Below, in pieces: positions 2,075 through 24,235 of a DNA stretch of 64,000 bases. The translations under genes were made by a program, and so were the position numbers. Source of the DNA: Escherichia coli (GTDB lineage: Bacteria; Pseudomonadota; Gammaproteobacteria; Enterobacterales; Enterobacteriaceae). The stretch lies in NCBI RefSeq assembly GCF_030013595.1, contig NZ_CP122768.1; one strand, written 5' to 3'. Under the pieces are notes generated by a model. It made no database searches. It was not told where the DNA came from and saw nothing but the letters and a program-made list of their open reading frames with translations. The number at the start of each line of letters is the position of its first letter. The stretch's first letter is position 1.

Positions 2075-2101
2075 AATAAAAAAGGCGCCATTTCTGGCGC
2101 C
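2075..2101 (-). terminator. hairpin plus T-run between J and lom
   Basis: ggcgcc-N6-ggcgcc stem followed by TTTTTTATT on minus strand. Confidence 0.5.
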
Positions 2102-2120
2102 CGTATATGGGTTATAAAAT

Positions 2121-5100
2121 TCAGCTGATACTGATGCCTGCGGTGGCTTTCTTCATCACCACAACCAGCAAATCGCTGATACTTGCTGTGGGATACCAGT
2201 TATTTACCAGCCATGCTGACACCGAAAACTCCAGTGTCATGTGACCGTGACCGGCAGGCATATCAATAACACCACTGTAAATCAGCGTATTATCCAGCGC
2301 GGTACGGTTATAAATTTCAGCACCGTTTTTCCGTACTATCAGACGGCATGAGGAGTAAATATCAGTATGCTCTTTCTCATGTTTAGCGCCGCTGAATGCC
2401 ACCGCCGGAATAACAATCTGCCGGTCAAACGGCTGATCGTCATAAACCCTGACGGTGATGGTCCCTGATGGCCACCGTTCCGGTGCACGGGAGTCCCGGG
2501 GGAAAGCTTTGCCCACTGTTTTAACGAGATCGCCTTCAATCTGGTTCGCGGACAGTTTTCCCAGAACCCGACAGTTCTCGTTAATCGTGACGTTGTTGAG
2601 CGTCCCGGAGTTCGCATTCACGTTACCGCTGATATCGGCATTTTTCGCCGTCAGCCGCCCGTCCGGTGTCAGGGAAAATGCCGGTGGATTTCCGCCGCTG
2701 GTAATGGTGGGAGCCGTCAGGCGTTTCAGGAACACGTCGTTCATGAATATCTGATCGCCCTGACCAACAAACATCGGCTTTGTGTTGCCATTCGCAGGAT
2801 TAATCATCGCAATCCGGTCAGCAGCCAGAAGCACCTGACTCTGCATACCTGCTGGCGTATTCTCAATACCGGCTCCGATACCCGCAATATAAAGGCGTCC
2901 GTCCTTCATCTGCTGCAGTTTCACGGCCCACATGCTGTTCAGGTTATTATTTGTATCAACCTGAACTTTCTGTATCTGCTGGATTGCCGCGCTCTGATTT
3001 TCCAGTTTCTTATTGACGGTCTGTGTGATTTCATTGCTGACATCCGTAATGGACGTCCTGATTTCAGCCAGGTCAGGCGCAAGCTGATCGTTATCAATCT
3101 GCGTCCACAGCTCCTGAGCCAGATGGGTTTTCCCTATCTCGCCTTTGAAAAAATCCAGATAGCCGGATGCGTCATCACTCGGCTGACCGACAGCCTCCAC
3201 GAATGCCGATTTGCCAACAGTGTTCACACTGCGAACGTAAAAATAATAATCATGGCCCGGCTTAATATTGATACTGGCAGCTATCCAGTACAGCGCCGTA
3301 CCAAGATAGCGCGCTGTGGTTTCAACCTGCCTGATATCCGCAATCCGCTTTTCCGAGAACCAGAACTCAAACTGTACCGTCGGATCATAAACGGCAAGAT
3401 GCGGCGTGGCGGTTATCTGAAAATAGCCCGGCGTCAGCTCAATCCGCGACGGTGCTGCCGGTGCGGCAATCCGGAACGATACCGATGCCGGATCGCCCTG
3501 CTGTCCCCACGCATTTACCGCCCGGACTGTCAGCCTGTAGTTCCCCAGCGCCAGCTGCCTGAAGCGGTATGTGGTTTCCGTCGTCCGGGCCGTGCTGACC
3601 AGCCGCTCACTGCCGTCATCGGCGGCCACGGTCAGGCGAAGCATAAAGCTCACACCCTTCACCACCTTCGGCGTGTCCCAGCGCGCCAGCACCTGATACT
3701 CCCCACTGTCTGCGGTGACTTCTGCGGTCAGGTGCTGCACCGCTGGCGGCGTGACACCATTCACCGTGCCGCTCTGGTCGCCGTCAAAGTGCGCCCCGTT
3801 ATCCACGATGGCTTCTTTCTCCGGTACATGCTGCACGGCAGTGATGGCATACGTGCCGTCATCGTTCTCACGGATACTCACACAGCGGAACAGGCGCTGG
3901 CGCAACGTCGGCAGCTTCAGCCCCCACACGCTGTATTCTGCAACGCCGTCAGGAACACGGCTCACTTTCACCTTCACACCGTCGGTGACGGACTGAACCT
4001 CCACGCTGACCGGATTGCCACTTCCGTCAACCAGGCTTATCAGCGTGGTACCGGAGGATGGCAGCGTGATTTCACGGTCGAGCGTCAGCGTCCGGGTCTG
4101 GCTGTTCACCGCCAGCACGCGCCCGCCGGTGCTGATACCGGCATAGTCATCATCGCAGATTTCAATGACATCGCCCGGCACATGGCGAAGCCCTTCTGCG
4201 CCCACGCTGAAATCCACGGTCTGCGTTTCCAGCAGTTCCGTTTTAATCAGCCACAGCCCGGCGCGGTGTGCCTGCCCCCGGCTGGTACAGCCAAAGGCAT
4301 CCATCTTCGTAACATTACGACCGTAACGGGCAATGGCCTGCGTATCTTCAACAAGCTCTGTCGCCGTCTCCCAGCCGTTATCCGGGTCAATCCAGTTCAC
4401 CTCAACGGCATTATGGCGGTCCTTCAGGGCGCTGAAGCTGTAGCGGAACGGCGCGCCATCATCCGGCATCACCACATTACTGCGGTTATAGGTCCACACC
4501 TTATCCGACGGTCGGTCCTGCACGAACGTCAGCGTCTGCCCGTTCCATACCGGCATACAGCGCATCGCCGAGCAGAAATCGCTGAGCACATCCCACGCCT
4601 TACGTTGTGTGGTCAGCCAGGCATTACAGGTGATGCGCGGCTCCGTGCCGCCAAAACCGTCCGGCACCGACTGGTCGCAGTACTGGCCGATGACATACAG
4701 CGCCCATTTATCCACATCTGCCGCACCAAGACGTTTCCCCATGCCGTAGCGCGGATGGGTCAGCATATCCCACAGACACCAGGCCATGTTGTTGCTGTAT
4801 GCTGGCTTAAACGTTCCATCCCAGATACCGCTGTATTGCCGCGTCTGCGGGTTATAGTTCGACGGCACCTGCAGAATGCGCCCGCGCAGATGATAATTAC
4901 GGCTCACCTGCTGGCTGCCGAACTGCTCCGAGTCCACCTGCACGCCGACCAGTGCCGTGTTCGGGTAGCACTGTTTCACATCTATAATTTCGGTGTATGA
5001 CGACCAGAGCGTTTTGTTCTGCAGCTGGTCTGTGGTGCTGTCCGGCGTCATCCTGCGCATCCGGATACTGAACGGGCGCGGCGGCAGGTTATCCACCACC

Positions 5101-16683: not shown

Positions 16684-20364
<3,681 letters not shown>

Positions 20365-20390
<26 letters not shown>

Positions 20391-20910
20391 TCAGCAACCC
20401 CGGTATCAGTTCATCCAGCGCGGCTGCTTTGTTCATGGCTTTGATGATATCCCGTTTCAGGAAATCAACATGTCGGTTTTCCAGTTCCGGAAAACGCCGC
20501 TGCACCGACAGGGGGATCCCGTCGAGAATACTGGCAATTTCACCTGCGATCCGCGACAGCACGAAAGTACAGAATGCGGTTTCCACCACTTCAGCGGAGT
20601 CTCTGGCATTCTTCAGTTCCTGTGCGTCGGCCTGCGCACGCGTAAGTCGATGGCGTTCGTACTCAATAGTCCCTGGCTGGAGATCTGCCTCGCTGGCCGC
20701 CCTGTAATCCTCAACCTCTTTACGGAGTTTTTCATTTTCGATATCAGCTTCCCTCTGCGCATACCACTGAATTGCCATGGCGGTATCAAATACAGATTCA
20801 ACGCCCTTACCACCTCCGGAGACGCAAGGGAGTCCCTGAGACTGCCAGCGTTCAATCGTTCGCGGATCCACGTTGAAAATTTCGGCAAGTTTCTTTTTAT
20901 TAACCTTCAT
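20365..20910 (-). CDS. Nu1: terminase small subunit Nu1
   Basis: 181 aa, N-terminal HTH, λ Nu1-like sequence. Confidence 0.9.
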
Positions 20911-21252: not shown

Positions 21253-21945
21253 ATGTCCAGAGAAGGAACGTTAGATTTATTGCAAGAAGTTGAAGAAACC
21301 GTTGAAATATTAAAAGATACGCAACAAATAAAACCAGTAAAGGTTAAATCAATACTTGAAAATTTAAGAAGCGCATTAGAATACGTTGCGAATGATAGTT
21401 ATGAAAAACATACCACTAACCAATCAACCCCTCGGCCAAAAATTTATTTCCCATACGGCGAGAAAAAATTTTTAGATGCTTTCTTTATTAAAAAATTAAA
21501 CTGCCAGCAACCTGAATTATCTCCATTATATGCAGTTTTTGTTTCAATCCAAGACTATCAAACTGGTAATAACTGGCTTGGAATGATGTGTAACCTCACG
21601 AACGAAGCAAAACATAGGCAACCAATCCCATTGAGTGAAGATAGTATTGTTCGAGGAATAGATGTTAATATCAATGGGTTTGGATTAATTAAGGCAGATG
21701 CTACATCAAAAATCATTTTCAGAGATAATTTCACCAATGGACAGAGAATTGAAGACTTCACCATTGAAAATGGTAAAGTTGAAAAATCAGGGAACGGAAT
21801 ACCCATCAATATTAACATGACCGAAGAGAAAAAAATAAGATTCCACGGTACAGATTATGAGGTTATTCCTTTTGTAGAGTTATGTCTAAAAGAAATAAGA
21901 GATTTTGTTAATGAAGCATATGAAATTTTAGATGCCATTGAATAA
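21253..21945 (+). CDS. hypothetical protein (230 aa), AT-rich accessory gene in the bor slot
   Basis: Long ORF with GGAG RBS, candidate TTCAAC-N17-CATAAT promoter upstream, strongly AT-rich codons, opposite strand to lysis genes; no motif recognised. Confidence 0.7.
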   Translation: MSREGTLDLLQEVEETVEILKDTQQIKPVKVKSILENLRSALEYVANDSYEKHTTNQSTPRPKIYFPYGEKKFLDAFFIKKLNCQQPELSPLYAVFVSIQDYQTGNNWLGMMCNLTNEAKHRQPIPLSEDSIVRGIDVNINGFGLIKADATSKIIFRDNFTNGQRIEDFTIENGKVEKSGNGIPININMTEEKKIRFHGTDYEVIPFVELCLKEIRDFVNEAYEILDAIE

Positions 21946-22040: not shown

Positions 22041-22562
22041 TCAATTGTAATTTGATGTCCTCACCGACTCATAAACGCGCTCACACGTCATTCCAGCCCG
22101 GTAGCTTTCGTCAGATCGCTCAGCATAATATCGAGCTTCTTCTGCAAGGCGGCCGAGCATGTCGGCGAGCACTGCGGCGTCGGCTCCGGCTGTTTTGCTT
22201 CTGACGGCAGCGGCAAGATCTGCGGTGTGCTTTGCGGCGTCCAGGCGGGCGGCAAGCTTTGTTGCTTCGGTGCGCAGCTGGTTAACAGTGGCAGACAGGC
22301 CAGCAGCAGTGGCAGCAGATTTAGCTGCTTGTGCTTGTGCATCTTTTACAGCCTCATCACGGGCAATTATGCGCCCTTGTTCAATCATGCGGGCTGCGGT
22401 CTGCGCGTTCGCTGTTTGCGATGATTCCGCGCTGTCACGTTCCGCCCACTTTTTTTCCCAACCGCGGCTACACCATATATTTCCAGCGATAAACGCACTG
22501 GTCACTAGTACCGCGGCAACAATAAGCTGGGAGCACAGGCTCACTGGTCTATCCCCCAGCAC
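22041..22562 (-). CDS. Rz: i-spanin Rz
   Basis: N-terminal TM segment, Ala-rich coiled-coil periplasmic region, overlaps 3' end of endolysin gene. Confidence 0.75.
22088..22342 (-). CDS. Rz1: o-spanin Rz1 (lipoprotein) embedded in +1 frame of Rz
   Basis: Signal peptide with lipobox LLTSC, proline-rich mature region, fully nested within Rz. Confidence 0.7.
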
Positions 22563-23074: not shown

Positions 23075-23201
23075 GGATATTTATCAGGATTTATCAGTTT
23101 CTAATCTATAGATATGTTAAGCACTCAGCCCGTCAGTGGTGGATACTGGCGTATGTAATAAAGGGGGGATGGCTGATTACCTCTGATAAGGGAATGTAAC
23201 T

Positions 23202-23498
23202 ATGAACGGTATAGATCCATTCAAACCAATCAGTAAGCAACTTGATGTGGTATTACCACAACTGATAAAACACGACGACCTTCTGGATAAAGTGTTGCCT
23301 TTTTATATTGCTGTTACCGCAAAATTATCAGGTAAAACTCGAGAAGAGGTTCTCAAATATAACATGCTGGCTTTAGAAACAATTTTTGGCTCAGAAAAAG
23401 CGGGAAAATCACCCAAAGAGCTGGCAGAATCTCAATTTGCTTATATGACAAATATAAGAGTATCCGAAATCTTTGATAAGCTACCAGACATTGAATAA
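23202..23498 (+). CDS. hypothetical protein (98 aa), AT-rich, opposite strand inside lysis cassette
   Basis: ORF with AT-rich composition between endolysin and holin genes; no motif recognised. Confidence 0.55.
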   Translation: MNGIDPFKPISKQLDVVLPQLIKHDDLLDKVLPFYIAVTAKLSGKTREEVLKYNMLALETIFGSEKAGKSPKELAESQFAYMTNIRVSEIFDKLPDIE

Positions 23499-23499
23499 T

Positions 23500-23525
23500 T
23501 TCTAAGCGGCAGTAATGCCGCTTTA
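23500..23525. terminator. hairpin between convergent 98-aa and 72-aa genes (possibly bidirectional terminator)
   Basis: agcggca-gtaa-tgccgct stem-loop flanked by T/A runs. Confidence 0.45.
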
Positions 23526-23741
23526 TATTTTTTCAGCCAAATTTTTCAAGAACTGTTTGGCATGTTTTACCGCAGTAACTTCATAATAATCCAAGCCAGC
23601 TCCTTCAAGTCGCTCAAGGGTGATGTTCAGATCAAAAATTTCACCGGCAAAATGTTCTTTGTCCTGTAACGTTAAGATTACCGTAACTTTATTCTCAAAA
23701 TTGCGGATCCCTTTCACAATCAGTTCATAGTTTTGAGTCAT
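23523..23741 (-). CDS. small lysis-region protein (72 aa), YdfR/DUF1327-like by recollection
   Basis: Co-oriented ORF immediately downstream of holin gene; family assignment from memory only. Confidence 0.6.
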   Translation of the reverse strand: MTQNYELIVKGIRNFENKVTVILTLQDKEHFAGEIFDLNITLERLEGAGLDYYEVTAVKHAKQFLKNLAEKI

Positions 23742-23745
23742 TGAA

Positions 23746-24079: not shown

Positions 24080-24155
24080 TGGTGCTGGTTAACGGACTTG
24101 AACCGCTACCCATTCGCTTACAAGGCGACCGCTCTACCATTGGAGCTAAACCAGC
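24080..24155 (-). tRNA. tRNA-like gene, anticodon UGU (Thr) by hand folding
   Basis: 76 nt cloverleaf: acceptor GCTGGTT/AACCAGC, D-arm GCTC…GAGC, anticodon loop CTTGTAA, T-loop TTCAAGT, CCA end. Confidence 0.55.
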
Positions 24156-24160
24156 ATATT

Positions 24161-24235
24161 TGGCGGGACAGCGTGGACTCGAACCACGATAAGAAGGTTA
24201 ACAGCCTTCCGTAATGACCTTTATACGACTGACCC
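24161..24235 (-). tRNA. second tRNA-like element, anticodon GUU (Asn?) with imperfect acceptor/D arm; possibly a pseudo-tRNA
   Basis: T-arm CGTGG-TTCGAGT-CCACG, anticodon stem GAAGG/CCTTC loop CTGTTAA, CCA end; one acceptor mismatch. Confidence 0.4.

Follow-up and report, generated by a model that had tools for sequence, protein, structure and literature searches.

What occupies the 671 bp that separate the holin gene S from the endolysin gene R in a prophage of Escherichia coli, and does this interruption change the control of the lysis genes that lie beyond it? The question is raised by a stretch of 64,000 nucleotides (nt) of contig NZ_CP122768.1 (hereafter the window; all positions are those of the whole stretch unless another locus is named), in which the lysis genes lie on the minus strand and follow each other, in the downstream direction, in the order Q, tRNA-Asn, tRNA-Thr, S, a 72-amino-acid (72-aa) open reading frame (ORF), R and Rz/Rz1. 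A sequence-only reading of the window had described S as a pinholin gene and R as the gene of a signal-anchor-release (SAR) endolysin, the two lying about 670 bp apart, with a co-oriented 72-aa ORF and an AT-rich 98-aa ORF on the opposite strand between them and a stem-loop between the convergent 3' ends of the two ORFs. This description is borne out: the gap (23075-23745) measures 671 bp and contains the 72-aa late-strand ORF, the 98-aa opposite-strand ORF and a hairpin, found at 23504-23523 between both stop codons; the products of S and R match holin and endolysin families of PHROG, the N-terminus of R being hydrophobic and, as far as can be read off the sequence, SAR-like; the GC content is 34-37% in the 98-aa region, compared to about 50% in S and R.

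The gap is probably a mosaic of a late ydfR core and a self-contained moron on the opposite strand, the latter being one member of a leader-sharing family in prophages of Enterobacterales. Taken alone, the locus is an ordinary combination of a widespread prophage gene and a moron; its wider significance lies in the observation that one and the same putative promoter and leader, about 100 nt in all, serves at least 20 unrelated families of small ORFs, placed antisense in the late operons of Enterobacterales prophages.

The 72-aa and 98-aa genes

Both small ORFs are real genes, since the ratio of non-synonymous to synonymous substitution rates (dN/dS) is low and the length of their homologues is conserved, being maintained down to about 35-60% identity. 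Measured against diverged homologues, dN/dS is 0.19-0.43 for the 72-aa protein and 0.08-0.13 for the 98-aa gene, a value that indicates purifying selection, with synonymous sites saturated in most of the latter comparisons. Homology searches and structure prediction, proposed by the sequence-only reading as a check on both proteins, identify the 72-aa protein as the core of DUF1327, modelled as beta-beta-beta-alpha, and the 98-aa protein as a four-helix model belonging to a family of unknown function (Table 1).

In the 72-aa protein, residues 1-71 align with positions 1-71 of the 93 positions of the Pfam model; PHROG 2735 also matches (1.3e-30), and in the five PHROG families matched, whose profiles span 105-296 positions, only residues 1-72 are involved. 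The AlphaFold model has a mean predicted local distance difference test score (pLDDT) of 90.8, and a PDB search with the sequence gave no match. Over its 5' 165 nt the gene shares about 87% identity with the common ydfR, the products of which (103-114 aa) align with the window protein over their first ~72 residues and then continue into a variable tail. Of 5426 complete E. coli genomes, 2145 (about 40%) have a ydfR in the S-R slot, and the gene is found also in phages such as mEp460. The start codon of the 72-aa gene lies 4 nt past the stop codon of S, with its Shine-Dalgarno sequence (GGAGAG) inside the 3' end of S, and the gene is probably translationally coupled to the holin gene. The earlier claim that two extra genes interrupt the lysis operon is therefore to be divided: the 98-aa cargo is indeed extra with respect to mEp460, whereas the 72-aa ORF represents the conserved core of a gene that commonly resides in this slot.

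The 98-aa protein gave no match in Pfam, NCBIfam or PADLOC; a sequence search of the PDB returned nothing below E = 0.06, and a Foldseek comparison of its AlphaFold model (four helices, pLDDT 84.5) with the PDB returned nothing below E = 1.9 and no informative structural neighbour. Its family is tiny: 5.8 billion proteins yielded 16 clusters, and a profile search of 1.84 billion representatives found 6 proteins, one of which, eukaryote-like and 1077 aa long, was discarded because it matched by chance through a repeat. The homologues are 97-100 aa long and share 27 invariant residues.

The location between S and R suggests that both genes might be lysis accessories, which tune the timing of the holin or of the endolysin. 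The presence of ydfR in the slot of some 40% of E. coli genomes and its probable translational coupling to S are in line with this view, as are several cassettes of the family described below which adjoin holin genes in other genera, and a genetic screen tying ydfR to envelope integrity, cited in PMC13232886. However, the same partner-cargo cassettes occur inside tail clusters (ES18 gp24/25, Serratia, Escherichia sp.); both proteins lack transmembrane segments and signal peptides, as judged from the sequences and the AlphaFold models; and the 98-aa gene, running antisense to the late transcript, is expected to be off when the lysis genes are on. In addition, a cytoplasmic, RNA-related role is suggested by the behaviour of K-12 YdfR, which bound RNase E's catalytic domain and co-purified with RNA (PMC13232886); its residues 1-72 suffice for the two-hybrid interaction with the N-terminal half of RNase E and with RNase G (PMC13232886), and the protein co-purifies with RNase E 1-598 and brings down DNase-resistant nucleic acid (PMC13232886; a paper of 2026). 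A function of both genes in lysis timing is thus considered unlikely.

The 98-aa gene as a moron

In phage mEp460 the order is S-ydfR-R without cargo, and the window cassette is extra DNA between genes that are adjacent there; the alignment of the window with mEp460 breaks right after GGATATTTATCAGGAT, beside the start codon of R, and again inside ydfR near codon 55. The full 671-bp arrangement is uncommon: 56 E. coli genomes carry it, as does phage Evi, in every case at the S-R position; the S alleles of the genomes carrying it are 76-99% identical to the S gene of the window.

The morons of lambdoid phages are reportedly treated by Juhala et al. 2000. Compared with the Juhala/Hendrix definition, the 98-aa unit is extra DNA relative to mEp460, possesses its own factor-independent terminator and deviates in base composition. 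As to a promoter of its own, the sequence TTATCA-16-TATGTT agrees with the consensus at 8 of 12 positions and remains uncalled by the scan, while a TAnnnT element is fixed exactly 6 nt upstream of the TCAGCC of the leader (72 of 87 distinct cassettes). On sequence grounds the 98-aa gene is a classical moron, of low GC content, absent from mEp460, under purifying selection and equipped with its own terminator and a promoter-like region. That it looks like an independently expressed moron, as had been proposed from the sequence, agrees with its being AT-rich extra DNA with a terminator on its own strand and a conserved TAnnnT and leader, and with the several positions at which it is found elsewhere.

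Polarity of the hairpin

The hairpin AAGCGGCA-GTAA-TGCCGCTT has a folding free energy of -16.1 kcal/mol (z = -3.9, equalled by none of 200 shuffles); on the plus strand a T-tract comes next, supplied by the final codons (EKI-stop) of the 72-aa gene. Read along the late strand, the sequence after the stem is AGAAAUUAUUC, with no U-tract, and the consensus terminator scan made no call on the minus strand. Since the U-tract is present on the plus (moron) strand only, the hairpin is the terminator of the moron.

The sequence-only reading had assigned the hairpin to the lysis operon instead, as a terminator of non-antiterminated transcripts before R, such that R and Rz/Rz1 would be made solely by Q-modified polymerase. 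A stable, GC-rich stem does stand between S/ydfR and R, and a true late-strand terminator is present at the far end of 41 of 87 family cassettes, and such a terminator is annotated in ES18; but this far-end terminator is absent from the window copy, where the cassette abuts the start codon of R, and the only T-tract of the window lies on the plus strand. Moreover, S and R share the late strand downstream of Q; going by the lambda model, the whole cassette, S included, should therefore need Q already, and S would be as Q-dependent as R, so that the hairpin adds no special Q dependence for R. A gate for R at this hairpin is accordingly not upheld by the polarity of its U-tract and has to be regarded as very improbable.

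The far-end terminator of the 41 cassettes has the form AGCCACC-TTCG-GGTGGC followed by a T-run, and stands directly before the ATG of the next tail gene, many of these cassettes lying in tail clusters. The hairpin is identical in a Cronobacter cassette, although the 98-aa protein encoded in that cassette shares only 86% identity with the one of the window. In phage Evi (locus positions 3425-3448, corresponding to 23499-23522 in the window) the stem is identical and the loop is inverted, TTAC replacing GTAA; the change looks like a hairpin-loop inversion by template switching.

Putative promoter and shared leader

The ~100 nt upstream of the 98-aa relatives are better conserved than the proteins themselves. 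The elements recur in a constant order: TAnnnT, 6 nt, TCAGCC(CG), a variable hairpin, the block GGATGGCTGATTACCTCT (in which GGCTGA forms the complement of TCAGCC) and, last, a Shine-Dalgarno sequence before the ATG; in the window, the predicted transcription start falls at about 23124-26. The secondary structure of the leader, comprising an outer helix (P1, TCAGCC:GGCUGA) and an inner hairpin (P2), was specified by hand and its pairs were counted. Over 50 distinct leaders P2 is 92.6% paired, with compensatory changes at 3-4 pairs, and 46 cells are changed on both sides, a value reached by none of 500 shuffles; at pair 11:29, 16 U.G, 13 C-G and 12 U-A are found, and the leader is favoured as a plus-strand RNA because of the U.G intermediates at this pair. 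P1 varies only by U.G, and a third helix, GAGG:CCUC, may tentatively be drawn as a pseudoknot with P1. RNAalifold, applied to the leader alignment, gave part of P2 and an alternative hairpin, and the covariance models of Rfam 15 gave no match at E <= 5 over the window leader or the HK022 copy.

The pattern GGRTGGCTGWTYAMCTCT, taken from the 3' block, occurs in at least 120 viral contigs, nearly all of them with the full leader context. In a genome collection with one genome per species it was found at 119 loci, compared to about 140 expected by chance (an estimate), and only the 44 matches with full context were retained; these belong to Enterobacterales wherever the title is visible (Escherichia, Citrobacter, Enterobacter, Serratia, Pantoea, Erwinia, Xenorhabdus, Rosenbergiella and others).

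The window leader also contains a mini-ORF at 23169-23186 on the plus strand (ATG GCT GAT TAC CTC TGA, MADYL-stop), behind a GGGGGG/GGAGG run; in other cassettes the mini-ORF has a different end or reads on, so that its translation is doubtful. Its GAU(U/C)ACCUC segment is nearly identical to the 3' end of 16S rRNA (GAUCACCUCC).

That the leader is more conserved than the cargo may also be read to mean that the plus-strand product is itself an antisense or regulatory RNA, directed against the late transcripts of incoming related phages, the ORF being incidental; a parallel is offered by STnc6030 of phage BTP1, which is expressed in the lysogen from within the late genes and excludes superinfecting phage (PMC7067206). 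Against this stand the strong purifying selection on the protein (the dN/dS values given above, with their saturated synonymous sites) and the conservation of ORF length and of the 27 invariant residues; furthermore, the terminator ends the transcript before ydfR and S, leaving it antisense only to the non-coding spacer and to its own cassette. Of the explanations considered here, an RNA acting in place of the protein is the least probable.

Partner genes and cargo exchange

All 17 relatives of the 98-aa gene that were looked up are antisense to late genes and convergent with a small late-strand gene 2-29 bp away, whose product is either a short DUF1327 protein (71-75 aa) or a protein of 93-99 aa. 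The unit is mobile, its relatives being met at several places: in Serratia between J and I; in Escherichia sp. and E. coli between H and M; also between M and L; in Cronobacter downstream of the lysis genes; on a Xenorhabdus contig and on a metagenomic one, upstream of the holin gene; and in the S-R gap. Cargo is exchanged as well; in Enterobacterales prophages the leader precedes at least 20 cargo families of 63-169 aa that are unrelated to each other, one being the 98-aa family. Of these families, 13 are accompanied by the 93-95-aa partner and two by the short DUF1327 partner; some cassettes are partnerless but have a proper terminator. Among 99 distinct cassettes, none has flanking long ORFs solely on the cargo strand on both sides; the flanking long ORFs are on the opposite strand only in 39 cassettes on the left and in 44 on the right, and most of the others are mixed.

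The convergent partner at 17/17 loci is what would be expected if the 98-aa protein and the YdfR core formed a dedicated pair, of the toxin-antitoxin or effector-immunity type, one member neutralising or regulating the other; the 98-aa protein and its 72-aa partner also diverge together (98%/92%, 86%/61%, 62%/39% and 58%/31% identity, respectively). However, the 98-aa family is joined with two partner families between which no relationship is detectable (hhalign probability 1-2% with two alignment sets); the 93-95-aa partner serves 13 unrelated cargo families and the DUF1327 partner a second cargo family too; cassettes without partner (HK022) and YdfR without cargo (mEp460) exist; and the two genes, being on opposite strands, are under different control. 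PADLOC gave no match for the 98-aa protein, the 72-aa protein or two sequences of the 93-95-aa partner. The locus does not qualify as a toxin-antitoxin or defence system, because PADLOC matches are lacking and partners and cargos are freely mixed, and a dedicated pair is rated as quite unlikely.

Cargo proteins of three families (C3, C7 and C18), which are 65-74 aa long and beta-rich and have a helix at the C-terminus, match the DUF1327 profile weakly (hhalign probability 55%, E = 1.2e-4), and judging from this match DUF1327-like proteins may occur on either strand of such cassettes. In E. coli 4/0, where the slot holds a long ydfR, a 90-aa ORF on the opposite strand (WP_000369850, PHROG 2411; locus positions 2079-2351, plus strand) extends 35 nt into the 3' end of ydfR; the promoter region in front of it is shared with the window, the cargo and the hairpin leader (CAGCCTG...CAGGCTG) being different. 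The 90-aa ORF was considered as a member of the 98-aa family and rejected, being unrelated on comparison. To judge by these sequences, the S-R slot is a recurrent site for opposite-strand cargo.

Proposed mechanism and significance

If the gap is a mosaic of ydfR core and moron, the ydfR core would be co-transcribed with the holin gene and hence form part of the Q-dependent late transcript, while a weak sigma-70 promoter (TTATCA-16-TATGTT) would start transcription of the moron at about 23124, where the helices of the leader have their base. In the lysogen, where the late operon would be silent, the moron alone would be transcribed and the 98-aa protein made. Stem-loops of the ompA type at the 5' end of a transcript are mRNA stabilisers, and the 5'-terminal stem-loops of the leader may shield the moron mRNA from 5'-end-dependent decay in the same manner; at the other end, the one-way terminator would keep the transcript from running antisense into ydfR and S. 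Upon induction, Q-modified polymerase coming from S and ydfR would cross the hairpin and proceed head-on through the moron to R/Rz, and occlusion of its promoter, collision of polymerases and antisense RNA would silence the moron. The role of the 98-aa protein, by analogy with other morons, is most likely a benefit to the lysogen, such as the exclusion of other phages or the modulation of host physiology.

Throughout the family the same putative promoter and leader, often together with one anchor gene on the late strand (a short DUF1327 protein or the 93-95-aa protein), flank exchangeable cargo ORFs. A more ambitious extension of the mosaic reading regards the leader and the late-strand anchor as a portable on/off platform, in which the DUF1327 core (beta-beta-beta-alpha and weakly similar to a double-stranded-RNA-binding domain) would act as a late adaptor, binding the 5' hairpins of the moron and, upon induction, passing its mRNA on to RNase E in much the way in which RapZ treats GlmZ; this extension is speculative and on balance improbable, even more so than a dedicated pair. 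If true, it would mean that lysogeny-expressed cargo is switched off when the phage goes lytic.

Several points weigh against the picture of a moron driven by its own promoter and leader. The promoter is weak by consensus (8/12) and falls below the threshold of the consensus scan, and its -35 region is poorly conserved or else its spacer unusual, at 15-16 bp. The third helix GAGG:CCUC finds anecdotal support only; the window leader alone folds no better than shuffled sequence (z = 0.26); and the invariance of the 18-nt block is partly owed to its use as a search pattern. Finally, the presence of a convergent small gene at each of the 17 loci could mean a functional two-gene unit rather than cargo plus anchor.

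From a practical point of view, TCAGCCCG-hairpin-GGATGGCTGATTACCTCT provides a simple sequence handle for finding small proteins that would be expressed in the lysogen by enteric prophages; the leader-driven proteins are candidate exclusion, anti-defence or host-modulating factors, and the leader RNA suggests itself as a natural candidate partner for YdfR, the reported RNase E binder.

Coordinates and neighbouring genes

The features of the S-R gap and of its surroundings are collected in Table 1. A class II holin (a homologue of S is named 'class II holin family protein' in RefSeq), a lysozyme whose N-terminus appears SAR-like and spanins together make up a cassette of the pinholin/SAR-endolysin type. 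The start codon of R (minus strand, window 23075-23100) is preceded by ATCCTGATAAATATCC, without a recognisable Shine-Dalgarno sequence, and the same is found in mEp460 and in E. coli 4/0. The pair of tRNA-Thr and tRNA-Asn genes between Q and the holin gene is an arrangement shared with many Stx-like and lambdoid prophages.

Table 1. Features of the S-R gap and of the flanking lysis genes in the window.
Feature	Position	Strand	Basis
Putative sigma-70 promoter, TTATCA (23091-96), 16-bp spacer, TATGTT (23113-18)	23091-23118	plus	inferred
Conserved 5' leader of the 98-aa gene, ~80 nt	23123-23201	plus	alignment and pair counting
Leader helix P1, TCAGCC paired with GGCTGA	23125-30 with 23171-76	plus	
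Leader hairpin P2	23131-37 with 23145-51	plus	
Leader conserved block GGATGGCTGATTACCTCT	23167-84	plus	
Shine-Dalgarno sequence AAGGGA of the 98-aa gene	23188-93	plus	
98-aa moron cargo gene, predicted cytoplasmic four-helix protein	23202-23498	plus	PHROG 25324 (unknown function), 1.6e-60
Intrinsic terminator of the 98-aa gene, 8-bp stem and GTAA loop (23504-23523), T-tract TATATTTTTT (23524-33)	23504-23533	plus	terminator scan
72-aa late-strand gene, DUF1327/YdfR core domain alone	23523-23741	minus	Pfam PF07041, 1.3e-26
S, class II (S21-like, pinholin-type) holin, 71 aa	23746-23961	minus	PHROG 9876 and PHROG 20 holin, 2.8e-35
tRNA-Thr(TGT), between Q and S	24080-24155	minus	ARAGORN; Rfam tRNA (tRNA pair: 61 and 55 bits)
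tRNA-Asn(GTT), between Q and S	24161-24235	minus	ARAGORN; Rfam tRNA (tRNA pair: 61 and 55 bits)
Late antiterminator Q gene (context)	24510-25133	minus	PHROG 127 'anti-termination protein Q-like', 6.6e-83
R, putative SAR-type endolysin (lysozyme), 177 aa	22541-23074	minus	PHROG 7 endolysin, 1.8e-59
Rz spanin, with Rz1 embedded at 22088-22342	22041-22562	minus	PHROG 312 and PHROG 11621, Rz-like spanin

Beyond Rz, the strand opposite to the late genes carries a 230-aa ORF (21253-21945, plus strand; GC content about 33%), which separates Rz from the late-strand ORFs that come next downstream, one of 181 aa (20365-20910) and one of 641 aa (18465-20390). It matches PHROG 13652 (unknown function; 8.7e-107), with no match in Pfam and no credible match in PADLOC, and represents a second candidate moron of the same late region, without the shared leader.

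Comparison with known systems

Two phage genes already recorded as morons are preceded by a leader of the window type, namely HK022 gp23 ('srb protein; moron gene product') and ES18 gp25 ('possible moron'); the latter is convergent with gp24 (DUF1327), putative terminators of the two genes being marked in the record. The definition of morons was based on two phages, of which HK022 is one (PMC3594210). Like the window unit, the units of HK022 and ES18 are extra units between late genes and antisense to them, having a promoter (putative in the window) and a terminator of their own; they share the promoter and leader sequence of the window, and ES18 gp24 is a DUF1327 partner convergent on its cargo, as is the 72-aa gene. 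The cargo is different, the 98-aa family of the window being replaced by a 73-aa protein in HK022 (gp23) and a 95-aa protein in ES18 (gp25), and so is the location, which is the S-R gap in the window and the tail genes in HK022 and ES18; in addition, the window copy has no far-end late-strand terminator.

The 72-aa gene belongs to the same family, and occupies the same holin-endolysin slot, as that of YdfR in the Qin prophage of K-12 (P76160, DUF1327; essQ-ydfR-rrrQ). Its product corresponds exactly to YdfR residues 1-72, the part reported to be sufficient for binding RNase E and RNase G (PMC13232886); unlike K-12 YdfR, it stops at residue 72 without the variable C-terminal tail, and the 3' end of the gene, unlike that of K-12 ydfR, is rebuilt to encode the moron terminator.

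Morons of the HK97 gp15, Cor and Bor/Lom type share the genomic logic of small genes within late operons, expressed from the repressed prophage (PMC3594210). These, however, are membrane proteins or lipoproteins with known targets, whereas for the 98-aa protein solubility is predicted and no relative with a known function could be detected. A further likeness is to the cargo hotspots of P2/P4-like elements, reportedly described by Rousset et al. 2022: in both cases conserved flanks surround cargo that varies greatly and is swapped among related prophages. Unlike these hotspots, the leader cassettes carry a single ORF of 60-100 aa each, have a shared promoter and leader and lie antisense in late operons; no cargo matched a known defence protein in PADLOC, among the few cargos tested. 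In the literature searched, no description of a shared moron leader, of anchor genes, of HK022 'srb' or of ES18 gp24/25 was met. The locus itself, a moron beside the common gene ydfR, is of a known kind; the shared platform of leader and anchor gene with exchangeable cargo, with its possible link to RNase E through YdfR, may be the sole part that is new.

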